Shown: in pieces, positions 923 to 11,588 of the stretch
Numbering within the stretch: the stretch's first letter is position 1
How the letters are laid out: each line of letters opens with the position of its first letter
Assembly (NCBI GenBank): GCA_040397175.1
Contig: JBBAWM010000003.1
Coordinates: 159,255-223,254, forward strand
Direction: 5' to 3'
Source: Candidatus Limnocylindrus sp.
GTDB taxonomy: Bacteria > Chloroflexota > Limnocylindria > Limnocylindrales > Limnocylindraceae
DNA length: 64,000 bases
Position numbers and translations under genes: made by a program
Notes under the pieces: model-generated
Told to the model about the DNA's origin: nothing
Databases searched by the model: none
Seen by the model: the letters and a program-made list of their open reading frames with translations, nothing else

Positions 923-3469
923 TTACTTCCGCAGGCTTTGTGGCAGCACAGGAAGCTGTCGGGCTGGATCGTGACGTCGCCCAGCGACGGTGTTCTCCCA
1001 GTTGGCTTCACCACGAATGAATGTTGCCTCTGATGTGCGCTCCAGCTTTGATAGGGCGATGAGGTCAATCATTGGCTCGCTGCGGTCGGTGTGCGCAAGT
1101 TCAAAGTCGAAGCCGCTGCGGAGCGCGTCATATGGACAGGCGTCAACGCAGATGCCGCAAAGGATGCAGCGAGACTCATCAACTTCGTATTTGGTAAGAA
1201 TTCGTGGCTTCGGCATCAGCGCGCCAGTTGGGCAGGTTTCTGCACAGCGGCCACACGAAACACACGGTGATTCATTGAGGCTCATGTCGAGCGGCGTGGT
1301 GACGAGCGTGTCGAAGCCGGTACGCATGAAGTCGTAGCAGGCGGCGCCAACAACCTCGGCACACACATTGGCGCAACGGCCACAGTCAATGCAGCGTGAT
1401 GGCTCGCGCAAGATGAACGCGTGTGAGTCGTCGCGCAGGTAGTCGTGGTTTGCTCCAGTCCAACGGTTTTCGGTAATGGAGCGGAATCCGGCGCCACCGT
1501 GATGGTCCTTCTCGAGCGTCTTAAGCGTGGTGCCGTATTCGATGCCGAGGCGGCGTAGATCGCAGAAGCCGATCGCTTCGCAGGTGCACTGCAAGCAGCG
1601 CGTGCTCTCGGCCATCACCTCGGGCTTGCTGTACGGAATCTCGTATTGGATGTAATCGTTCTTGCGCTCTTCGGCTGGGAGTGCCTTCAGGCGCAGGCGT
1701 GGCTCCTTCACCTCAGCGGTGAACGGAACGATGCTCAAGAACTCTGGCTGAGGCTCGGCGAGTGTCTGTCGGTTGCGAATCTCCGAGAGGTCGAGCCCCT
1801 GCAGGTACGCATCGACGGCGTATGCGCAGCGTCGACCGTCGGCAATCGAAGCGACGACGGTTGTTGCGCCGTTACGCAGGTCGCCGCAGCCGAAGACACC
1901 GTCGCGGCCAGATTGGAAGGTGACAGCGTCCGCCTTCATGCGGCCGTTCTTGGTGGTGGCGACGCCCTCTGCGCCAACGCTCGCCCAGGTCATATCGGGA
2001 CCCTGGCCGATCGCCTTCAGGATGCGGTCGCACTCGATGATGAATTCAGTGCCAGGAGCTGGCTCCGGTCGTCGGCGGCCTGATGCGTCGGGGGCGCCGA
2101 GCTGCATGCGAATGAACTCAAGGCCGATCACCTTGTTGTTCCCATCGGTGACGACGCGGGTCGGCCCAGCCTGGAAGATGGCGCGTGCCCCCTCCTCGAT
2201 CATCTCGTGCACTTCGTCGGCTGCTGGCATGTCCTTCATGTCGCGGCGGTAGACGAGGGTGACCTCCTTGGCCCCCTGGCGCACGCTCGTTCGTGAGCAG
2301 TCCATCGAGGTGTAGCCGCCACCGACCACGACGACGCGACTCCCCTCGTGGCCTGGGTAGGTGAGGCCGAGGGCAGCGGTGTGCAGGTAGTCGAGACCGT
2401 CGATGACACCGTCGGCGTCTTCGCCAGGAATGCCAAGGTCGTTCGTGTCGTAGCAGCCGATAGCAACGACGACGCCGTCGTAGCCCTGTGCCTTCAGGTC
2501 GGCAACGGTGAAGTCGCGACCGAGCATCTTGCCGCACTCAAAGCGGCCACCAAGTCGCGTGATCGACTGGTACTCACCGTCGAGCACTTCGATCTTTGGC
2601 AGTCGGTACTGCGGAATGCCGTAGCGCAACATGCCGCCTGGCTCTGGGTCTTTTTCGAAGACGGTAACGTCGTGGCCGGCAACAAGCAGGTAGTACGCCG
2701 CGGATGCGCCCGCCGGGCCTGAGCCGATGACGGCGACGCGCTTGCCCGTCTTTGGCTGCAGCTCGAATGGCACTGGTGGGTCGAGATCCTCGTCCCACAT
2801 TGCCTTCAACACCTGGTCGCCGGCGTAGCGATGGCTATCACGAATCGCGATGGCCTCGTCGACCTCGTCTCGACGGCAGTGATCCTCGCAGGGCGCTGGG
2901 CAGACGCGGCCAAGGATGCTTGGGAATGGAATGGTGCGCTTGAAGATGCGTGCCGACTCGCGGAACTGCGATTCTGCGTTCGCCTTCAGGAATCCAGGAA
3001 TGTCGATGTGGCTCGGGCACTTGTTCTGGCACGGTGGCAAGCAGTAGGCGTTGTGGTCGCTGAAGATCAGCTCAAGGTTGGTGCGGCGAATCTCGCGGAT
3101 GCGATCGGTCTGCGTTGCTACGACCTGCGCAGGCTCCGCCTTTGCGGAACAACTGATGGATGGTTGATCGCACCCTTCAACATCCACCACGCACATGCGG
3201 CAGGCGCCGAATCCTGGAAGCTTCGGGTCGTAGCAGAGCGTTGGCACCTCGATACCGTTTGCGCGGCAGACTTCCAAAATGGTCTGCCCTTCGAATGCTT
3301 CAAACTTCTGCCCGTCGATCTCGACGTAGAAGGTTGGTGTGCGCTGCGGTCGCTGTGGGCTGCGTGTGGTGAGCAGCTTGTCGACGGCGACCTCTGCCGA
3401 CGGCGCAGGGGTGATCGCGCGCGATACAGGTGTTACTGCGCTTACCGGTCGATCAATCAGGTCGGCCAT
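923..3469 (-). CDS. Multidomain Fe-S flavoprotein: NuoG-type 2Fe-2S, GltD-like FAD/NADPH module, NuoG/HydA-type 2x[4Fe-4S], and the C-terminal half of NuoI
   Basis: PTLC..GACRMC..C (2Fe-2S); PPCQNKCP..GRVCPAPCE (GltD Fe-S); GSGPAG (FAD); GGGYTSMD and YRR (NADPH-type); CIDCGRCANVC and CVSCGRCAETCP; C-terminal YEVDESRCILCGICVDACPYDALRSGFDFELA resembles the second half of NuoI. Confidence 0.88.
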   Translation of the reverse strand: MADLIDRPVSAVTPVSRAITPAPSAEVAVDKLLTTRSPQRPQRTPTFYVEIDGQKFEAFEGQTILEVCRANGIEVPTLCYDPKLPGFGACRMCVVDVEGCDQPSISCSAKAEPAQVVATQTDRIREIRRTNLELIFSDHNAYCLPPCQNKCPSHIDIPGFLKANAESQFRESARIFKRTIPFPSILGRVCPAPCEDHCRRDEVDEAIAIRDSHRYAGDQVLKAMWDEDLDPPVPFELQPKTGKRVAVIGSGPAGASAAYYLLVAGHDVTVFEKDPEPGGMLRYGIPQYRLPKIEVLDGEYQSITRLGGRFECGKMLGRDFTVADLKAQGYDGVVVAIGCYDTNDLGIPGEDADGVIDGLDYLHTAALGLTYPGHEGSRVVVVGGGYTSMDCSRTSVRQGAKEVTLVYRRDMKDMPAADEVHEMIEEGARAIFQAGPTRVVTDGNNKVIGLEFIRMQLGAPDASGRRRPEPAPGTEFIIECDRILKAIGQGPDMTWASVGAEGVATTKNGRMKADAVTFQSGRDGVFGCGDLRNGATTVVASIADGRRCAYAVDAYLQGLDLSEIRNRQTLAEPQPEFLSIVPFTAEVKEPRLRLKALPAEERKNDYIQYEIPYSKPEVMAESTRCLQCTCEAIGFCDLRRLGIEYGTTLKTLEKDHHGGAGFRSITENRWTGANHDYLRDDSHAFILREPSRCIDCGRCANVCAEVVGAACYDFMRTGFDTLVTTPLDMSLNESPCVSCGRCAETCPTGALMPKPRILTKYEVDESRCILCGICVDACPYDALRSGFDFELAHTDRSEPMIDLIALSKLERTSEATFIRGEANWENTVAGRRHDPARQLPVLPQSLRK

Positions 3470-3471
3470 GA

Positions 3472-4731
3472 TCAGCTCCGTCCGCTTGTTGGTGTTGCCG
3501 CCGATGCGGCAATGGCAGGTCCAAACTCAGAGGCAAAGTATCGCACCCCCGTCAGGAGCGGGCTTGGCGCCAGCGCTTCATGTGCACAGAGGGCGCTATC
3601 GGTCACATCGGCGGCGAGCTTCTGCAGCCGCTCGGCATCGGCAGGGCCGGCCAGCCCATCAACAAAGCGCTGGCCGATCTCAGCGAGTCGGCGCGTGCCG
3701 ATTCGGCACGGAATCGTCTTGCCGCACGCCTCGTCAGCGCACCAGCGCGTCAGCATGGTGGCAAGCTCTGGAATGGCGACGGAGTTGTCGAGCGCCAGGA
3801 GTGCGCCTGAGCCTATATGTGCGCCGACACCCTTGAGCCCTGCGCCGCTGTACGGCGTGCCGCCAAAGAGGTTCGCTGGAATGAATCCGCCCGTTGGCCC
3901 ACCAACGAGCAGCGCCTTGATACGTGCGCCACTGGCAGTGCCGCCCGCCGCCGCGAGGATCTCGTTGAGTGGCGTGCCAGTCGGCACCTCAAGGACGCCA
4001 GGGTTTGCGACAGAGCCGCTGATCTGCACGAGCACCGTTCCCGGCTGTGCCGTGTCACCGATCTGCGCAAAGGTCGCAGCGCCGTTGCTGAGGATCCATG
4101 GCACCGCGGCGAGGGTGGCAACGTTGTTCACGGCAGTTGGCTTGCCGAGGTAGCCGATCTCAGATGGATATGGCGGTGTCTGCTCTGGCTGGCCGCGCTT
4201 GCCGGCCAGCGCCTTCATGAGCACCGTCTCTTCGCCGATCATGCTGGAGCCCTGGAGCGGGCGGACAGTGATGATCAGCTCGCGACCGGTGCCGAGCAGC
4301 GATGCGCCGAGGATCCCCTCGCGTTCGGCGTTGGTGATCACCGCTTCGAGTCGCTTGATCGCTTCGGTGTACTCGGCGCGCACGGCGATGAACGCTTCGC
4401 GGGCGCCAACGGTGAGGGCGGCGATGGCGAGCCCTTCCACGATCCCTTGTGGGTTCTCCTCCATGAGGAGTCGGTTGGTGAAGACGGCGGGGTCAGATTC
4501 GTAGCCGTTCGCCACGGCGTAGTGCTGGCTTGCTGGTTCGGCGGCGGTCGCCTGCCACTTCGCTCCGGTCAGGAAGCCGCCGCCGCCGCGACCACGCAGG
4601 CCGGCGGCGATCAGGGTTGCGGTCGTGCTGGCGGCTCCTGCCGCAGCGGCGGCGCGGAGTGCCGCCCACGGCTCGGTCGGTGCCGCGAACAGGAGTTGGC
4701 TCCAGCCCTTCGGGGCGTTCAGGCGCCTCAT
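3472..4731 (-). CDS. nuoF: NuoF-like (51 kDa subunit family) protein, diverged
   Basis: GLRGRGGGGFLTGAKW, GEETVL..GKRGQP..PPYP..GKPTAVNNV, GGPTGG and EACGKTIPCRIGT motifs. Several cofactor residues are substituted. Confidence 0.85.
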   Translation of the reverse strand: MRRLNAPKGWSQLLFAAPTEPWAALRAAAAAGAASTTATLIAAGLRGRGGGGFLTGAKWQATAAEPASQHYAVANGYESDPAVFTNRLLMEENPQGIVEGLAIAALTVGAREAFIAVRAEYTEAIKRLEAVITNAEREGILGASLLGTGRELIITVRPLQGSSMIGEETVLMKALAGKRGQPEQTPPYPSEIGYLGKPTAVNNVATLAAVPWILSNGAATFAQIGDTAQPGTVLVQISGSVANPGVLEVPTGTPLNEILAAAGGTASGARIKALLVGGPTGGFIPANLFGGTPYSGAGLKGVGAHIGSGALLALDNSVAIPELATMLTRWCADEACGKTIPCRIGTRRLAEIGQRFVDGLAGPADAERLQKLAADVTDSALCAHEALAPSPLLTGVRYFASEFGPAIAASAATPTSGRS

Positions 4732-5549
4732 GCGGCGTACCTACCAGCGAGGGCGGCGGCCCAGCTGGCGGCATTCTTGGCGCTGAGGTCGCGCTGTGGC
4801 TCACCATCAATGACCACGAGTGGTGACGGCGCATCGGGCAGGTGGTTCGGGAGCGACTCAAGGCGCAGGTTGCTCCATGGGATCGCCCGGCCGAACTCGG
4901 TGCCGAACTCATAGCTGAGGGTGCCCATCACCGAGCCTGCTCCTGAGACGAGGCAGTTGGCGCAACGGCAGACCGAGATGGAGCGGGTTACCCCGGGCTC
5001 GAAGGCAAGGTGCTTATAGAAGGTGGCGGTGCCGTACACCATGGCGTACCAGGCGCCGGTCGCTCGGCTGACGCGCTTCAACGCATCAACGGGAAGGTAG
5101 CCGTACGCCGCCTGAATCGCCTCCAGGATGGCGAGCATGTGATGCGGGTCGTAGTCGTGCGCTTCAAGAATCTCGTCGACCCTTGCAATGTTGATGGTCG
5201 CCCCAGTTGCCGCCGCCGCGTCGGAGACGGTTCGACCGGAGCGGCGCATCGCCGACTCTTCACGACGTTCGGCGTACTGCTCGGCGGGGCCCCAATGCAC
5301 GGCAAAGCGACCCTTCGTGTCGGTGCCGCCCATGTCAATGCACTCAATCGGGCAAGCCTGCGCGCACTGGAAGCAGGTCTCGCACTTCAGCGTGCCGTGT
5401 TCGTCGGTAACGAGTTCGAGTCGGCCGCGGTTTCGCGGTGCGATGTCGGGCTTCACCTCTGGGTAGAGCACCGTCCGCTTCGGTTGGAAGAAGCGCGTCA
5501 GCGTGAGACGCATCCCTGAAACGAGCCCAGCGCCAGGAATTCGCGGCAT
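4728..5549 (-). CDS. Fusion of the NuoI N-terminal half with a NuoE-like (24 kDa) domain
   Basis: Start MPRIPG at 5549 with GGGAGGT RBS. TVLYPEVKPDIAPRNRGRLEL..KCETCFQCAQACPIECI is NuoI-N; LEAIQAAYGYLP..VYGTATFY..ISVCRCANC is NuoE. Confidence 0.88.
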   Translation of the reverse strand: MPRIPGAGLVSGMRLTLTRFFQPKRTVLYPEVKPDIAPRNRGRLELVTDEHGTLKCETCFQCAQACPIECIDMGGTDTKGRFAVHWGPAEQYAERREESAMRRSGRTVSDAAAATGATINIARVDEILEAHDYDPHHMLAILEAIQAAYGYLPVDALKRVSRATGAWYAMVYGTATFYKHLAFEPGVTRSISVCRCANCLVSGAGSVMGTLSYEFGTEFGRAIPWSNLRLESLPNHLPDAPSPLVVIDGEPQRDLSAKNAASWAAALAGRYAA

Positions 5550-5551
5550 AA

Positions 5552-6892
5552 CTACCTCCCCGCAATCAGCACGGCGAACGCCGTGGCAAAGATATTGAGC
5601 AGTGATGCGGGCAGCAGCCACTTCCAGGCGAAGCCCATCAGCTGATCAATGCGTGCGCGCGGGAGCGTGCCGCGCATCCAGACGAAGGTGAAGACAAGCG
5701 TGAACGTCTTGATCAGGAACCAGATCAGGCTTGCTACGGGTGGCAGCATCACGTACGCCCACAGGCCGATGGCCGCCGTTGATACCGCGCCGAAGATCAA
5801 GAACCCACCGATCAGTGCCTGCCATCCTTTCACGCGCGTACTCGCGAACCAGAGGGGCGCGGCGAAGAGCAACGTGCCAAGTACCGGCGCGATGCCAGCG
5901 AGCAGCGGCAGCCCAATGCCGAGCGCACTGAGATTGATCAGGATCTGCGGATGGAGGTCAATATGGATTGGCGGGTTGGATCCGCCAAGGAATACGGCGC
6001 TGAAGAGTGCCGAGACGATGAAGACGTTCACGTACTCCGCGAAGAAGAAGAAGCCGAAGCGCATGCCGGAATACTCGGTTGCAAATCCGGCGACGATCTC
6101 TTGGTCGGCCTCGGCATTGTCAAATGGTGTGCGGTTCGCCTCGGCGGTGATGGCGATGAAGAAGATGATCGCCGCGAGGGGCTGGCGGAAGATGAACCAG
6201 TCGAGGAACGAGCCGTCTTGCGCGGCAACGATCTTCGGCAGTGAGAGCGTGCCGGTGAGGATCACGATCCCCACAACCGAAAGTGTGAGTGGAATCTCGT
6301 AGCTGATCGCCTGCGCTGCAGCGCGAATGCCGCCGAGCAGCGAGTACTTATTGAACGACGACCACCCGGCCATCATGAGGCCAACGACGCTGAGTCCACC
6401 GATGGCAAAGAAGTAGAGAAGCCCAAGCTCAAAGCCCATGCTCGTAAGCTCTGGCGCAAACGGGATCACGAGGAGCGTCATGAAGCTTGCGAGATAGACA
6501 ACGACTGGCGCGAGCGTGAAGACTGGAACATCGACGCTCGGTGGCGTGTAGTCCTCTTTCATCAACACTTTAAGGCCGTGCACCACGCTCATCACGGCAC
6601 CGGCTGGGCCGATGCGGTCGGGCCCAATGCGCAGGTTCATGAGCGCAATGATCTTCATCTCCATGTAGATCAGCAGGAATGCGACTGGAACAGAGATCAA
6701 GAATGTGATGACGGATGCTGCAAGGAAGCGCACGATCGGCAAGTTTGCGCCGATGGTTGCGGCGATGGCACCACCAAATGTGGCCAGCAGTACGGTCGTC
6801 AGCGCGCCGCCAATGGCGAGCACGGGTAGCAGCACGGCGAGTACCCGGCCCGCTGGTGTGAGGCGGTTCCAGGCCATCGATGCGCCGCTCAC
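5552..6892 (-). CDS. nuoH: NADH-quinone oxidoreductase subunit H (extended)
   Basis: LRIGPDRIGP, KEDYTP, NKYSLLGGIRAAAQAISYE, EANRTPFD..EIVAGFATEYSG and RGTLPRARIDQLM motifs. Confidence 0.96.
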   Translation of the reverse strand: MSGASMAWNRLTPAGRVLAVLLPVLAIGGALTTVLLATFGGAIAATIGANLPIVRFLAASVITFLISVPVAFLLIYMEMKIIALMNLRIGPDRIGPAGAVMSVVHGLKVLMKEDYTPPSVDVPVFTLAPVVVYLASFMTLLVIPFAPELTSMGFELGLLYFFAIGGLSVVGLMMAGWSSFNKYSLLGGIRAAAQAISYEIPLTLSVVGIVILTGTLSLPKIVAAQDGSFLDWFIFRQPLAAIIFFIAITAEANRTPFDNAEADQEIVAGFATEYSGMRFGFFFFAEYVNVFIVSALFSAVFLGGSNPPIHIDLHPQILINLSALGIGLPLLAGIAPVLGTLLFAAPLWFASTRVKGWQALIGGFLIFGAVSTAAIGLWAYVMLPPVASLIWFLIKTFTLVFTFVWMRGTLPRARIDQLMGFAWKWLLPASLLNIFATAFAVLIAGR

Positions 6893-8100
6893 TTGTCAAC
6901 TCCGCCCATGACTGGGTCGAGGCTGGCCATCACCGCCATTGTGTCGGCGATGAGGTTCCCCCTGGTGAGCGGCCCAACAAGTTGTAGGTGCACGAATGAC
7001 GGGTCGTGGATGCGCATGCGGAACGGCTGGTCGGTGCCATCGCTAATTGCGTAGGTGCCGTACACGCCACGTGGCCCTTCAGCGGCACCGAATGCGCGGC
7101 CAGGTCGCGGGCGCAACAGTCGTGGCAGCTTCGCCATCACTGGTCCGTCGGGCATCTCGTGAAGCACCTGGTCGATGATGCGGATCGACTGCTTGATCTC
7201 GTCCATGCGAACGAGGTAGCGCGCCAGCGAGTCGCCCTCGTCGCGGGTTGGCACGTCGAACTCCAGCTCTGGGTAGACGAGATAGGGGCGGTCGCGGCGC
7301 AGGTCGAACGGCACGCCGCTCGCTCGTAGGTTCGGACCGGTCACGCCCATCTTGAGCGCTGTCTTTGCATCGAGAACGCCGAGGCCACGGGTGCGGCGCA
7401 CGAAGATCTCGTTCTCGTTGATCAGGGCCAGGTTGGAGTCGATCTGCGCCGCGGCGCGGCTCATCCACGTGCCGAGGCGGCTCATGAACTCGTGGTTCAG
7501 GTCGCCGTTCACCCCGCCGATTCGGTAGTAGTTGTAGAGCAGCTTCTGTCCGGTGAGGGCGGCGAGCATGTCGACGATCTCGTCGCGCTCGATGAAGGCC
7601 CAGAGGATCGGCGTGATGCCGCCGAGGTCGAGCGCCATCCAGCCCTGGAAGAGGGTGTGGCTGGCGATGCGGTTGAGCTCCATCGTGAGCACGCGGATGT
7701 ACTGCGCACGGAGCGGCACCTCAACATCCATCAACTTTTCGAAAGCGGCGACCGGTGCAGCCTCACAGAAGAGTGACGCCACGTACTCAAGCGGATCGGT
7801 GTAGCAGATCGCCTGGTGGTAGTCGGCGTTCTCGCAGAGCTTCTCAACGCCGCGATGCAGGTAGCCGAGCACCGGGTCAAGGTCGACCACTTTTTCACCG
7901 TTCACCTTGATAATCACGCGCAGCACGCCGTGGGTTGAAGGGTGCTGTGGACCCATGTTCACGAACATCTCGCCTTCGCGCAACGTGAGGAACTCCGCCT
8001 GTCGCTCTGTCTGTGGGATCGGCGCCGGTTCGTACCACGTGGACTCCGCGGGAATCGCTACGCGTGGATCATCGAGCGATGGGCGCATCTGCTGCGTCAT
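6889..8100 (-). CDS. nuoD: NADH-quinone oxidoreductase subunit D
   Basis: NMGPQHPSTHGVLR, GYLHRGVEKL, ELNRIASH, RIGGV and EGPRG motifs. Confidence 0.97.
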   Translation of the reverse strand: MTQQMRPSLDDPRVAIPAESTWYEPAPIPQTERQAEFLTLREGEMFVNMGPQHPSTHGVLRVIIKVNGEKVVDLDPVLGYLHRGVEKLCENADYHQAICYTDPLEYVASLFCEAAPVAAFEKLMDVEVPLRAQYIRVLTMELNRIASHTLFQGWMALDLGGITPILWAFIERDEIVDMLAALTGQKLLYNYYRIGGVNGDLNHEFMSRLGTWMSRAAAQIDSNLALINENEIFVRRTRGLGVLDAKTALKMGVTGPNLRASGVPFDLRRDRPYLVYPELEFDVPTRDEGDSLARYLVRMDEIKQSIRIIDQVLHEMPDGPVMAKLPRLLRPRPGRAFGAAEGPRGVYGTYAISDGTDQPFRMRIHDPSFVHLQLVGPLTRGNLIADTMAVMASLDPVMGGVDK

Positions 8101-8102
8101 CG

Positions 8103-8654
8103 CTACGCCCCTGGGCTCTTGCGCAGCAGGGTTGCTGCGGTTGCGTCGGCCGGTGTTCCGGCGCGCTCCATGTTTCGCACACCAGCGGCGGGTGAGCGCG
8201 ATGCATCGTCGGCGAGATAGAAATCTTTGCGCAGCGGGAAGCTGCGGTAATCGTCTGGCATGTAGATGCGACGCAGGTCGCGATTCCCCTCAAAGATGAT
8301 CCCAAACATGTCGTAGGCCTCGCGCTCCATCCACTCGGCGCCTGGCCACAAGAATGTTGCCGACGCAATGCGCGGCGCGGTGCGATCGAGTCCTGGAACA
8401 ATGACGCGAAGCCAATCACCACTCGTTGACGAAGAGAGGTGGTACACAACTTGCATCTCTTCGCCGGTGTCGACACCGCACAGGTCAATCAGCATTTCAA
8501 ATCGAAACGCAGGGTCATCGTGCAACAATCGCAACGTATCGGTGGCATCGGCAAGCGCAACGCGAATCTCACTCTCGTCATATCGCTGGCGCACCGGTGT
8601 GAGGAGTCGCTCGCCAAACTTCTCTTGCAGCAGTGCGGCGAGACGGCGATCCAC
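8103..8654 (-). CDS. nuoC: NADH-quinone oxidoreductase subunit C
   Basis: DLCGVD and WMEREAYDMFGIIFEG..LRRIYMP..FPLRKDF motifs. Confidence 0.96.
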   Translation of the reverse strand: MDRRLAALLQEKFGERLLTPVRQRYDESEIRVALADATDTLRLLHDDPAFRFEMLIDLCGVDTGEEMQVVYHLSSSTSGDWLRVIVPGLDRTAPRIASATFLWPGAEWMEREAYDMFGIIFEGNRDLRRIYMPDDYRSFPLRKDFYLADDASRSPAAGVRNMERAGTPADATAATLLRKSPGA

Positions 8655-9362
8655 TTAGATCCCCTTCGGAACTGTTGGCCCGATCGCGCGCTCTGGCCAG
8701 TGGCCGCGGCGATCTTTTACCAACTGCTGCAACTTCATCATTCCGTAGATCAGACCCTCTGGGCGCGGCGGGCAGCCAGGAATATATACATCGACCGGCA
8801 TCACGCGATCGATTCCTTGGACCACGGAGTAGCTGCGCTTGTAGCGTCCGCCAGAGCAGGTGCAGTCGCCCATCGCAACGACCCATTTTGGTTCAGGCAT
8901 CTGCTCCCACAAGCGAATCAGTGGTTCGGCCATTTTTGTTGTCAGTGTTCCGGCAACGATCAACACGTCGGCCTGACGGGGGCTGGCGCGGAACGGGAAC
9001 ATGCCCCAGCGGTCGATGTCGTTCTTCGGTGTTGCGGTCGACATCATCTCAATTGCGCAGCAGGCGAGACCAGAGAGCAGTGGCCACAAGCTGTTTGCGC
9101 GAATCAGATCGAGTACGACGTCGGCCTTCGTTGGAATCGCTGCGAGGGCACCGCCCCAGCGCGCATCATCGACACGACCGTCACCGGTTGCGTCGTAGCG
9201 CGCGAGCTCAAGATTTGGATGCGCCTCGAGTGGTAGCCCGCCGTACGCGCGTGGATCATCGGTGCTCCACAGTGTGTTGCCAACGGTTGCCGGCGACTGA
9301 ATGCTGCCGTCTGGCTGCACTTCAGGCAGGTTGCTGAACTTTGGGTCGCGCGTTATCGCCAT
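8655..9362 (-). CDS. nuoB: NADH-quinone oxidoreductase subunit B
   Basis: [32 protein letters not shown] and [13 protein letters not shown] supply the N2 ligands. Start taken at MAITRD. Confidence 0.96.
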
Positions 9363-9709
9363 GAGAGGACCCCCTTGCGCCATGCATGCGCGAGGCCAAC
9401 AAGGAGCACGCCGATGAAGATCGCCATGGAGATCAGGCCGTCCATCAAGAGCACCTTGAAGTTCAGTGCCCAGATGTAGATGAAGACGATCTCAACGTCG
9501 AAGGCGACGAAAAGGAGTGCGTACAGATAGAAGGAGAGACCGAAGCGCCCGTGCGTGTCGCCGTACGTGTCGATGCCAGACTCGTAGGGGACCTGCTTGC
9601 CGCGGCTGCCGCGCGTGCGGTGGGAGATCAGCCAAGCGAGGCCGATGGTAAGGAACACGAAGGAAGCACCTGCGCCTGCGAAACCGAGGACGTACCAGAG
9701 TCCGGTCAT
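9353..9709 (-). CDS. nuoA: NADH-quinone oxidoreductase subunit A
   Basis: [25 protein letters not shown] and AWRKGVLSW motifs; GGGAG RBS. Confidence 0.96.
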
Positions 9710-9778: not shown

Positions 9779-9784
9779 ATTCTA
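9779..9784 (-). promoter_or_regulatory. Candidate -10 box (TAGAAT) for the nuo operon, overlapping the stop codon of the upstream methyltransferase
   Basis: TAGAAT about 70 nt upstream of the nuoA ATG; no clear -35. Confidence 0.45.
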
Positions 9785-10963
9785 GACGAGGGGGCGATTC
9801 GGAGCCGCCGTTCCTGGGAGTGGCGATGTGGGGTCGGCGAGGGCATTTGCCCCTGGGGAACGCCCCGCCACAAACAGTTCCACGGCAAATCCGCCCATGC
9901 GGCGAGGATCCATCAGTTGGGCGAGTGCGGAGCGTAGGGCGATCGCCGCCTCAAGGGTTGCCGTCGGCCCGGTGCGGGTTCGGGCTACCTCGCCGTCGAC
10001 CCCCGCCGTTGCGAGAAACCTGGCCTGGTTCGTGCTGGACACGTGGCGGAGCCCACCTCGTTCCGCCGCAGCCCGAAGCAGGGTGAGGTCCACATGGGCG
10101 GTCAGGTCGCGGCCCCCCGGCTCGCCGAGGAGGTCGGCGGTTGCTCGGTGCCCCTGGTAGGCGAGGGCGGTACCGGCCATTCGGCTGGCGGGGTCCCGCA
10201 GGGTAGCCCCCTCACGGCCGTAATCAAGCACGAGGACGACCCCCTCGGTGAGCTCGCCCCCGAGCGTGGCGGCCCAGTCGGCCGTGGCTGGCGAGATCTC
10301 GGCGAGCTGCCCTTCGGCGAGCGGCGGCCAGCCAGCCATCAGGGAGGCGAGCCGCTCGGCGACCTCTGGGTCAGGGGCCACTTCAATCCACGTGAGGGCA
10401 TTTGTTACAGGATCAACGGCCACGCGACGCTCGGCGAAGCCGCCCGGGGCGGCGGCGCGGCCGACCACGATGTGAAAAGGGAGGGCGTCGGCAAACTCAT
10501 TGGCGACCACGATCCCTGCGGCGGGTGGGCTGCTCGCTGCGATGAGCGGCGGCCCCCCACCGGGTCGGGCCCCCAGTGCCGCCGTCAGGTCGGCCAGGCG
10601 GTATGGATTCGCCTCGCTCACCGAGACCTCCAGCACATCCAGTAGGGGGTGCCCTTCGCGGGCGAGGTGGTCGAGTGCTGCCAGCAGCAGGGTCCCCTCG
10701 CCAGCGCCGTACTCACGCCAGCGAAACTGCGTCGGCCGACCGAGCCGATCCCATGTTGCGGCGGCGAGTTGGGCGATGGCGACGCCAAGGAGTGGGTGCA
10801 GCTCTGGCGCGGTCATGAAGTCGCCGCTGCGGCCAGCCCGACGCTGCACCGTTGCGTAGTAGCCGAGCTCGGGCTCAAGGAGGGCGCGCTCCATGAAGCG
10901 CGCAAAGCTGATGGAGCCCTGCCGTTGGGCCTCTTCACGAATGAGCCGTTCGACCTCTTCCAT
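9782..10963 (-). CDS. MidA/NDUFAF7-family SAM-dependent methyltransferase
   Basis: ISFARFMERAL..GYY..GRSGDFMTAPE, EYGAGEG, ANEFADALP, LDYG, PGGRDLTAHVD and RMGGF are MidA-family hallmarks. Start at MEEVERL. Confidence 0.88.
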   Translation of the reverse strand: MEEVERLIREEAQRQGSISFARFMERALLEPELGYYATVQRRAGRSGDFMTAPELHPLLGVAIAQLAAATWDRLGRPTQFRWREYGAGEGTLLLAALDHLAREGHPLLDVLEVSVSEANPYRLADLTAALGARPGGGPPLIAASSPPAAGIVVANEFADALPFHIVVGRAAAPGGFAERRVAVDPVTNALTWIEVAPDPEVAERLASLMAGWPPLAEGQLAEISPATADWAATLGGELTEGVVLVLDYGREGATLRDPASRMAGTALAYQGHRATADLLGEPGGRDLTAHVDLTLLRAAAERGGLRHVSSTNQARFLATAGVDGEVARTRTGPTATLEAAIALRSALAQLMDPRRMGGFAVELFVAGRSPGANALADPTSPLPGTAAPNRPLV

Positions 10964-10970
10964 GCAGTAG

Positions 10971-10990
10971 ATCCTACGCGGCGCTACCGT
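10971..10990. promoter_or_regulatory. Back-to-back leaderless-type -10 boxes: TAGGAT (minus) and TACCGT (plus)
   Basis: Each TANNNT hexamer lies 7 nt upstream of the ATG of its divergent gene (10963 minus, 10998 plus); no SD is present. Confidence 0.55.
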
Positions 10991-10997
10991 CGGGCAC

Positions 10998-11588
10998 ATG
11001 CGTGACCTCGTTGTACACCTAGGGATCGGGGCAAACCTTGACGACCCTGTGGCCACACTCGCCGAGGCGGTCGTTGCGCTCGCGCACATTCCGGGCTGGA
11101 GCCTTGAGCAGGTCTCACCGCTCTATCGCACCACCCCAGTCGGACTTGTTGATCAACCGGAGTTCTTCAATGCCGCGATTCGTCTGCGCGTTGCACTACC
11201 CGACGAGCCAGCTGCGGCGGCGGTTGAGGTGCTCGTGCGCGTGAAAGAACTCGAACGCCTCTTCGGGCGAGTGCCAACAGTACGGTTCGGACCGCGCCGT
11301 CTCGACATTGACATCATCGCTATGGAGAACATCGCGGTCGTGCATCCGCGCCCACTCGGCACAGAGCCAGATGGCGCCGATAGCGATCGGCCCCTCGTTG
11401 TTCCACATTCTGCGGCAACCGAACGCCTCTTTGTCTTAGCGCCACTCGCCGACATTTCACCAACGCTCAAGGCACCAGGCTGGTCGGGAACAGCGCGTGA
11501 ACTGCGTGATGTACAACGAGGTCGTGAGGGCGATGCGGCGGCGCTCTGCGTTGGCGCGTGGGACCAGGCGGCGCTGCGCTGGGTGTAG
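10998..11588 (+). CDS. folK: 2-amino-4-hydroxy-6-hydroxymethyldihydropteridine diphosphokinase
   Basis: LGIGANL, SPLYRTTPVG..DQPEFFNA, FGPRRLDIDI and PH...ERLFVLAPL motifs. Confidence 0.93.
   Translation: MRDLVVHLGIGANLDDPVATLAEAVVALAHIPGWSLEQVSPLYRTTPVGLVDQPEFFNAAIRLRVALPDEPAAAAVEVLVRVKELERLFGRVPTVRFGPRRLDIDIIAMENIAVVHPRPLGTEPDGADSDRPLVVPHSAATERLFVLAPLADISPTLKAPGWSGTARELRDVQRGREGDAAALCVGAWDQAALRWV

Follow-up and report, generated by a model that had tools for sequence, protein, structure and literature searches.

A complex I operon of Candidatus Limnocylindrus with NuoI in two halves around an NfnABC/StnABC-like module

How does a complex I operon that holds no intact nuoI gene come by its NuoI subunit? 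The question is raised by a stretch of 64,000 nt (the window, meaning the whole of the DNA analysed here) from Candidatus Limnocylindrus sp. (Chloroflexota, class Limnocylindria; contig JBBAWM010000003.1, positions 159,255 to 223,254), the minus strand of which carries the operon; the whole host genome was also searched. As listed in Table 1, profile matches give the order nuoA-B-C-D-H, then three open reading frames (ORF A, ORF B and ORF C), then nuoJ-K, with gene borders that abut or overlap. The nuoL, M and N genes, which pass their NCBIfam cut-offs, continue past the left edge of the window (G000:C3:154399-159292), and the canonical genes nuoA, B, C, D, H, J, K, L, M and N form a full set. 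The N2 cysteines of NuoB and the quinone-site His and Tyr of NuoD are visible in the alignment.

A preliminary description of the window had read ORF A as the N-terminal half of NuoI continued by NuoE, ORF B as a NuoF-like gene, and ORF C as a protein that ends in the C-terminal half of NuoI directly before nuoJ, the trio being kin to StnABC. The gene order without intact nuoI, the NuoF-like gene, the two halves and the kinship (best PDB matches 9bov_A, 8oh5_C and 9n5u_A) all stand; the NuoE assignment does not, and the loss of a cluster in the NuoE-like part, the three-cysteine B1 (N3) site of ORF B and the occurrence of the system in Ktedonobacteria had been overlooked. NuoI is split around a cut-down NfnABC/StnABC module; with moderate confidence, we propose that the resulting enzyme would pass electrons from NADPH (at flavin adenine dinucleotide, FAD) and probably from NADH (at flavin mononucleotide, FMN) to what is likely quinone, with proton pumping.

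NuoI in two polypeptides

Positions 1-64 of the NuoI model TIGR01971 match residues 12-76 of ORF A and positions 71-117 match residues 756-802 of ORF C; both half matches are under the cut-off, and a one-chain NuoI is absent here. An intact-NuoI profile was built from 37 Chloroflexota proteins (36 from 40 small loci outside Limnocylindria plus one intact copy from locus L029). On its 152 positions the halves of the window occupy 8-81 (61 bits) and 88-134 (40 bits) without overlap, and the gap between them is the loop separating the two NuoI motifs. The concern that the two segments might align better with unrelated ferredoxins was not borne out: the halves tile the profile, and the control, the neighbouring ferredoxin domain of ORF C, reached 8.5 bits against 40 for the C-half. 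In all three groups tested, like-for-like alignments of halves (N with N, C with C) scored 96-125 and crossed pairs 49-67. All eight NuoI cysteines are invariant across split-type proteins: ORF A proteins carry one NuoI motif (68/68), and the terminal motif, preceded by a NuoI strand and followed by the NuoI tail, is found in 65 of the 68 split-type ORF C proteins (the remaining three are cut by contig ends) and in none of four unsplit NfnA-like proteins. Each half was also given a tree of its own, from 21 split and 37 intact rows; both trees have a branch (95/87 and 98/86) with the split rows together on one side, and the order of the families is identical, with few columns and long branches that meet. 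The nearest intact rows in both trees are the same short-loop proteins (L101, L103 and L100), a placement that comes with long-branch warnings and from which nothing is concluded.

A two-cluster ferredoxin fold has each of its clusters ligated by three cysteines of one motif and a fourth from the other motif. Because of this rule, both NuoI clusters would need both proteins. ORF A residues 1-110 and ORF C residues 665-815 were co-folded with four 4Fe-4S clusters, alongside three controls: the halves gave 0.41 versus 0.00 for the best control, with runs agreeing in at least 78% of contacts and a predicted local distance difference test (pLDDT) value of at least 51 for the partner. The mark is reached by 116 of 157 solved complexes and by 2 of 215 mismatches, and at 0.60 or under by only 18 of those 157 and both mismatches; the pass may stem from likeness to solved NuoI structures. 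That the halves bind and ligate two clusters across chains would follow from the fold, with weak support from the co-fold. The AlphaFold2 model of ORF C (47 aligned sequences) has a mean pLDDT of 61 and is below 50 over residues 658-848, too low to judge the junction.

The split layout is not a misassembly. Contigs of four public runs (two DNA and two RNA libraries) bridge every gene border and both fusion points, and no contig joint falls inside 923-5549 in those runs; contigs of the RNA libraries cover the module, although presence there is no proof of transcription. The preliminary description had called for the same split in relatives, and it is there: nuoH is followed by the three module genes in all 35 loci fetched from families f1, f2 and f4. 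Close relatives carry such names as Ca. Limnocylindrus and Limnocylindrales. In f1 and f2 nuoJ directly follows ORF C (21/21 loci); in f4 the two are separated by 0.4-3.3 kb of variable DNA in 11 of 14 loci, and no nuoJ was seen in the other three. An assembly error, or a set of decaying pseudogenes, has a negligible probability: one relative, G044, has ORF C as two overlapping pieces (L034:4010-6398; a frameshift or a sequencing error) and nothing else speaks for an artefact, while the same junctions recur in the 35 fetched loci, in 15 Ktedonobacteria loci, in genome G300 and in independent contigs. As a side observation, 0.7-3.3 kb of unrelated variable DNA lies between ORF C and nuoJ in f4 loci L028, L032, L033, L035, L036, L038 and L040-L043, and this gap after the NuoI C-half resembles an insertion hot spot inside the operon.

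An intact copy elsewhere was also looked for. The host genome (1.38 Mb, 91.5% complete) gave six NuoI-family matches, none over the cut-off, and a whole nuoI over the cut-off was found in 0/41 close relatives. Across the class (151 Limnocylindria genomes, five of them unpublished) three have one and one more has a partial match; the three exceptions also match the split form, their intact nuoI lying between nuoH and nuoJ in a separate operon. Outside Limnocylindria, the corresponding count is 176 of 222 genomes (three unpublished).

The module between the halves

Residues 49-779 of ORF C align to NfnA (9bov_A, E 1e-164) and to StnC (8oh5_C). The protein is made up of a 2Fe-2S site A1, a His-ligated A3, a GltD-type FAD/NADPH domain with A6 and A7, and a ferredoxin domain with A2 and A4. 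All scored ligands of these six clusters, as well as Tyr-Arg-Arg 407-409, which we take to be the NADPH phosphate motif of GltD-type proteins, are invariant wherever covered in the 68 split-type proteins. The NuoI C-half starts at the place of the A5 motif, 20 residues past the A4 motif in 5/5 split proteins and 19-24 in four unsplit ones; ORF C breaks off at the start of the former formate-dehydrogenase-like domain, and terminates after the C-half. The NuoG model TIGR01973 matches the N-terminal part of ORF C only (83 bits versus a cut-off of 470), and the C-terminal molybdopterin-enzyme-like domain of NuoG is absent.

One ligand differs from the parent enzymes: Lys170, a ligand of A7 needed for StnC activity (PMC10482914), is His in 65/65 split-type proteins covering the site and Lys in 4/4 unsplit homologues. 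The enzyme might then be in effect an NADH-only complex I with the GltD domain as an inactive passenger. We rate this as highly improbable, since His is a normal cluster ligand and since no part of the module is better conserved than the GltD domain with its clusters, while the NADH-side subunits are decaying.

The NuoE-like part of ORF A matches the C subunits of NfnABC/StnABC. The four-cysteine 2Fe-2S signature (ligands of N1a, or C1) is present in 0/68 ORF A proteins, and f3, Ktedonobacteria and part of f2 have lost the thioredoxin domain. Because the signature is absent, this part is, to judge by its ligands, NuoE-like and not a working NuoE. The least decayed f2 copy, L013 (G031), keeps four cysteines in B1 and has a third one in its NuoE-like part.

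ORF B has 9n5u_B as its best PDB match and scores under the TIGR01959 cut-off. Its glycine loop is kept, and Lys58 and GEE are present in all 67 rows covering them; these are the counterparts of residues with which NfnB binds NADH (a glycine loop, Lys164 and a Glu; PMC11829005). In the B1 motif, Thr339 replaces the second cysteine in the protein of the window, and the other three cysteines are invariant in 68/68 ORF B proteins. A B3/B4 ferredoxin motif was found in none of the Limnocylindria ORF B proteins examined and in none of those in the outside-class alignment. Of the 52 ORF B proteins of the class, 45 have the zinc-site tail that characterises Bfu B subunits, suggesting that the ancestor was of the Bfu and not the NuoF kind; it is gone from all five f1 proteins.

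Table 1. Features of the operon in window coordinates, the NuoI halves and the module first
Feature	Position	Strand	Description or basis
ORF A (273 residues; ATG at 5549)	5549-4728	minus	NuoI N-half, linker of about 40 residues, NuoE/NfnC-like protein without 2Fe-2S ligand set
NuoI N-half, ORF A residues 8-81	5307-5528	minus	N-terminal helix and first CxxCxxCxxxCP motif (C56, C59, C62, C66)
NuoE-like part, ORF A residues 125-260	4770-5177	minus	PF01257; helical domain kept; third and fourth cluster cysteines gone here
ORF B (419 residues)	4731-3472	minus	NuoF/NfnB-like flavoprotein
ORF C (848 residues)	3469-923	minus	NfnA/StnC-like protein ending in NuoI C-half
GltD/NfnL-like domain, ORF C about residues 143-558	1796-3043	minus	FAD site; Tyr-Arg-Arg 407-409; His213 at the place of NfnA/StnC Lys170
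Two-cluster ferredoxin domain (A2, A4), ORF C residues 686-752	1214-1414	minus	Eight cysteines, all invariant
NuoI C-half, ORF C residues 755-801	1067-1207	minus	Second CxxCxxCxxxCP motif (C768, C771, C774, C778) and NuoI tail
nuoA, B, C, D, H block, upstream in operon	5552-9709	minus	
nuoA	9709-9353	minus	ORF list and family matches
nuoB	9383-8655	minus	ORF list and family matches
nuoC	8654-8103	minus	ORF list and family matches
nuoD	8100-6889	minus	ORF list and family matches
nuoH	6892-5552	minus	ORF list and family matches
nuoJ	919-359	minus	ORF list and family matches
nuoK	362-42	minus	ORF list and family matches

Proposed electron path and competing readings

In the enzyme we propose, the two NuoI halves would likely refold into one NuoI domain, which would hold the input arm fast on NuoB/C/D in two places. 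The path published for NfnA is FAD-A7-A6-A3-A2-A1-B1-FMN (PMC11829005). By analogy, electrons from NADPH would run from FAD through A7, A6 and A3 to A2, and those from NADH from FMN through B1 and A1 to the same A2, where both flavin branches would meet. The exit from there would lead through A4 to the rebuilt NuoI pair and on to N2 in NuoB and quinone. In soluble NfnA/StnC, A2-A4-A5 is a dead-end side branch (PMC11829005, PMC10482914). It likely became the exit to the quinone module, because the NuoI C-half replaces A5 and its domain with the spacing unchanged. Canonical complex I uses the His-ligated cluster N5 as its exit; the counterpart of N5, A3, would here be tied into the GltD branch. 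Electron bifurcation, for which B1-FMN-C1 is the minimal site (PMC11829005), is unexpected because the ligands of C1 and B3/B4 are gone.

That two bacterial classes have a complex I burning NADPH through an FAD of its own, with NuoI clusters shared by two fusion proteins, an exit by A4 and an arm geometry unlike solved complex I, is in our judgement evenly balanced. As to donors, zwf, an NADPH source, is over its cut-off in 5/5 genomes tested, and a gene of the 2-oxoacid:ferredoxin oxidoreductase family is present in the same number. Ktedonobacteria keep a canonical operon too, in line with another substrate for the split form.

Several points weigh against the enzyme as proposed. The second B1 cysteine is lost in 35 of the 52 Limnocylindria ORF B proteins, that of the window included (by family, 5/5 in f1, 16/17 in f2 and 14/14 in f4); B1 has four cysteines in the other 17 and in 16/16 proteins from outside the class. 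The Asp-Glu-Gly of the NfnB FMN loop is replaced in all split-type rows, and the NADH arm may be impaired; in the lineage of the window it is probably altered, with a three-cysteine B1 that perhaps holds a 3Fe-4S cluster. The pntB gene is present in 5/5 genomes, so NADH could enter as NADPH. When the 37 intact NuoI proteins were ranked by likeness to each half, no positive correlation was seen (rho -0.11, -0.45 and -0.11), so that a single donor gene for both halves is unsupported by this ranking. The co-fold pass is weak and returned no contacts, and so does not reveal which motifs pair. Pfam models also take residues 736-782 of ORF C, which hold its last two motifs, for a single dicluster domain. 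Finally, the direction of electron flow cannot be read from sequence, the NADPH:quinone function is itself deduced from sequence, and the physiology matches neither direction well enough to dispel doubt.

The state of the NADH side could mean that, in the lineage of the window, only the FAD/NADPH entry works, the NuoE-like and NuoF-like proteins being scaffolds that hold the N-half and PntAB converting NADH to NADPH. We judge this unlikely, though deserving of attention. It would account for the loss of the C1 ligands throughout and of the second B1 cysteine nearly throughout f1, f2 and f4, for the faster divergence of ORF B (about 50% identity to f2 relatives versus about 75% for ORF C), for the loss of the zinc-site tail in f1 and for the presence of pntB. 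It would leave unaccounted for the invariance of the glycine loop, Lys58, GEE and three B1 cysteines, and the four ligands kept by A1, a cluster that serves the FMN branch only. Moreover, ORF B is the sole NuoF-type match in the host genome, where no type II NADH dehydrogenase was recognised and no NDH2_C match was found (a weak test, positive in 3/14 controls); the four strong PF07992 matches are Lpd, TrxB and two GltD-type proteins. As a separate observation, a second GltD-type protein with a C-terminal 4Fe-4S domain is encoded directly upstream of cytochrome b, Rieske and cytochrome c genes (L108:2018-8415; G000:C1, about 168.5-175 kb), and is possibly an NADPH-linked partner of the cytochrome bc complex.

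The Pfam dicluster models at 736-782, the ferredoxin-like spacing there and a co-fold without contacts also suggest that the halves might not rebuild NuoI, the last motif of ORF C pairing instead with the preceding one, or the four motifs pairing in the manner of a polyferredoxin. This is very unlikely. The alignment of residues 686-752 with the A2/A4 domain of 9bov_A and 8oh5_C is free of gaps, which means that the two motifs of that domain are already partnered; the terminal motif has the strand and tail of NuoI on either side, and the motif of ORF A, an orphan under such pairing, is invariant.

As to direction, the enzyme could work mainly backwards or sideways, proton motive force driving electrons from quinol (or NADH) to NADP+ for biosynthesis. 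NADPH is a product of the parent enzymes (PMC11829005); Ktedonobacteria retain a canonical complex I, and members from caves have genes for CO2 fixation (PMC13374853); and in split-type copies of NuoD the Arg before the quinone-site tyrosine is replaced by Pro, Gln or Asn, which could shift N2. We hold this reading to be improbable: no whole nuoI was found in 148 of the 151 Limnocylindria genomes, so that the split form is likely the sole complex I of a small genome, and the genome also has zwf, pntB and a cytochrome b/Rieske/cytochrome c gene set.

Range, origin and relation to known systems

The layout was searched for in Chloroflexota genomes, other phyla being covered by ranked homologue lists. 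When the phylum was searched with ORF C, full-length homologues turned up in G300 and in four families belonging to another class, which rules out a design confined to Limnocylindria. Among 20 homologue loci fetched, 15 have the order nuoB-ORF A-B-C, G300 has nuoA-B-C-D-H-ORF A-B-C and four hold unsplit NfnA-like genes. Relatives of ORF A in that class bear the names Ktedonobacteraceae, Dictyobacter alpinus and D. arantiisoli, and the N-half fusion matches 71/71 Ktedonobacteria genomes (one unpublished). In f3 the arm forms its own cluster, nuoB-nuoD-ORF A-B-C, in 15/16 fetched loci, four of them cut by contig ends (the 16th repeats the f5 locus), and the membrane genes A-C-H-J-K-L-M-N lie elsewhere in 3/3 f3/f5 genomes checked. 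Thus, where the operon is broken up (f3 and all 15 Ktedonobacteria loci), the module stays with nuoB.

Ktedonobacteria also keep a canonical operon with intact nuoI (seven examined, one of them partial). Beside it, a second nuoA-C-D-H cluster without B or I and a second nuoJ are present in 5/5 genomes, and at least two nuoM genes in 25/26. These bacteria appear to have a complete second complex I, of the split type, spread over three loci. The alternative of a cassette swapped onto the canonical membrane arm was considered and, given the second nuoA-C-D-H, nuoJ and nuoM, is unnecessary. The NuoD residue three before the quinone-site tyrosine (residue 103 of the window nuoD) is Arg in 6/6 canonical Ktedonobacteria copies, Asn in 5/5 orphan copies and Gln in G300; the replacement of this Arg ties the orphan nuoD to the split type. 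Over 53 rows of the Limnocylindria alignment the residue is Pro (35), Gln (16) or Arg (2); one Arg row is a canonical NuoD copy and we infer the same for the other.

The ORF C core gave a FastTree (31 rows, 700 columns) in which all split-type proteins form one clade against the four unsplit ones (support 1.00), and f3/f5 are nearer to Ktedonobacteria and G300 than to f1/f2/f4. GC content at third codon positions is 0.73-0.77 in the three module genes versus 0.66-0.82 in the flanking nuo genes, a comparison of composition that gives no sign of recent transfer. Gene order and trees are compatible with a single origin and later transfer or differential loss; they are silent on the order of events, and thus on the complex I lacking NuoE, F and G and the single-step insertion that the preliminary description had supposed. 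Further afield, a profile search of 1.84 billion representatives gave 79 matches at 1e-30, without names, too little to fix the range outside the phylum. A search of 401 genomes with the G300 protein found no further family, at a threshold insensitive enough to miss f1, f2 and f4 as well.

How does this system relate to known ones? With the canonical 14-subunit complex I (in which NuoI is also called Nqo9 or TYKY) it shares ten other nuo genes, both NuoI motifs, the N2 cysteines and the His and Tyr of NuoD. It differs in that NuoI is in two polypeptides, the NuoE-like part has no cluster, and NuoG is replaced by a protein with a GltD domain and an extra A4 but no molybdopterin-like domain; the exit cluster is likely another one. 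With the NfnABC/StnABC (Nfn-Bfu) transhydrogenases (PMC11829005, PMC10482914, PMC12018979; C. saccharolyticus 9BOV, S. ovata 8OH5, T. sibiricus 9N5U) it shares the ligands of A1-A4, A6 and A7. Those enzymes are soluble, whereas the split module has NuoI-half fusions and a home in a nuo operon; it has His for Lys at A7 and lacks C1, B3/B4, the N-terminal thioredoxin domain of the B subunit, A5 and the Fdh-like domain. The B1-FMN-C1 flavobicluster of the Bfu family is absent, C1 being without ligands and B1 having three cysteines in the window.

Three other groups come close, and the first two are the nearest published ideas. Nuo-Bfu, the predicted bifurcating complex I of Deferribacteres, Proteobacteria, Planctomycetes and Nitrospirae (PMC9304861), also has a Bfu-family ABC module mid-operon in the place of NuoEFG, but keeps the full BfuBC core with predicted use of NADH and ferredoxin, and the available text mentions no GltD insertion or split NuoI; a complete bifurcating BfuABC is absent from the split-type operon. 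The mbx-like operons of Thermotoga and proteobacteria (PMC4758237) have a gltD-related flavoprotein in place of NuoI, that is, a GltD-type NAD(P)H flavoprotein in the nuoI slot of a complex-I-like operon. There NuoI is said to be substituted, in a Mrp-type complex thought to reduce NAD(P)+, and the available text makes no mention of a split NuoI; the split type retains both halves, has NuoE- and NuoF-like proteins in addition and is otherwise a nuo operon. The 11-subunit complex I-like enzymes NDH-1, Fpo and NUO11 have exchanged input modules (PMC3144371) and likewise carry a non-standard module on a conserved quinone and proton module, but they keep NuoI whole and dock a separate donor, whereas the split type would tie its input covalently into NuoI.

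The preliminary description knew of no such architecture, and no description of the layout came up in our literature search, the scope of which left out subscription journals and most supplements, including the operon variants in the main supplement of PMC4758237. The main text of PMC6169038 makes no mention of complex I, nuo or NADH, nor does the available text of PMC4453560 mention nuoI. The genes of the module are currently annotated as formate dehydrogenase, glutamate synthase or ferredoxin.

To our knowledge, complex I is among the best-studied enzymes, and NuoI has been treated as an indivisible core subunit. The sequences describe what seems to be a complex I of a new type, the architecture of which is real, conserved and well supported, and the function of which we infer. 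It would act like complex I yet lacks three of the canonical defining features, and would descend from NfnABC/StnABC yet lacks the features of bifurcation. A natural NuoI split that two classes have preserved would demonstrate that trans assembly of the subunit is possible, and would be a concrete record of the grafting of an input module onto a proton pump. If the function is as proposed, a native NADPH-fed proton pump would change models of redox balance for common soil and lake bacteria. Because cultured Dictyobacter species carry the N-half fusion, purification and cryo-electron microscopy are within reach.

A few minor features deserve mention. A PF02636 methyltransferase gene (window 9782-11089, minus strand) lies directly upstream of nuoA; PF02636 is the family of the complex I assembly factor NDUFAF7/MidA. 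In G040 (L022:3650-8233), no stop separates ORF B from ORF C in their shared open frame, so the two may be fused as well. In G300 (L206, G300:C115), the split-type A-B-C-D-H-ORF A-B-C cluster is without adjoining nuoJ-N, and a second nuoA-B-C/D cluster lies about 6 kb away. Two Ktedonobacteria genomes have a tandem duplication of ORF C (L205:6419-11470 and L207:6803-11826), the second copy of L207 being in two pieces.

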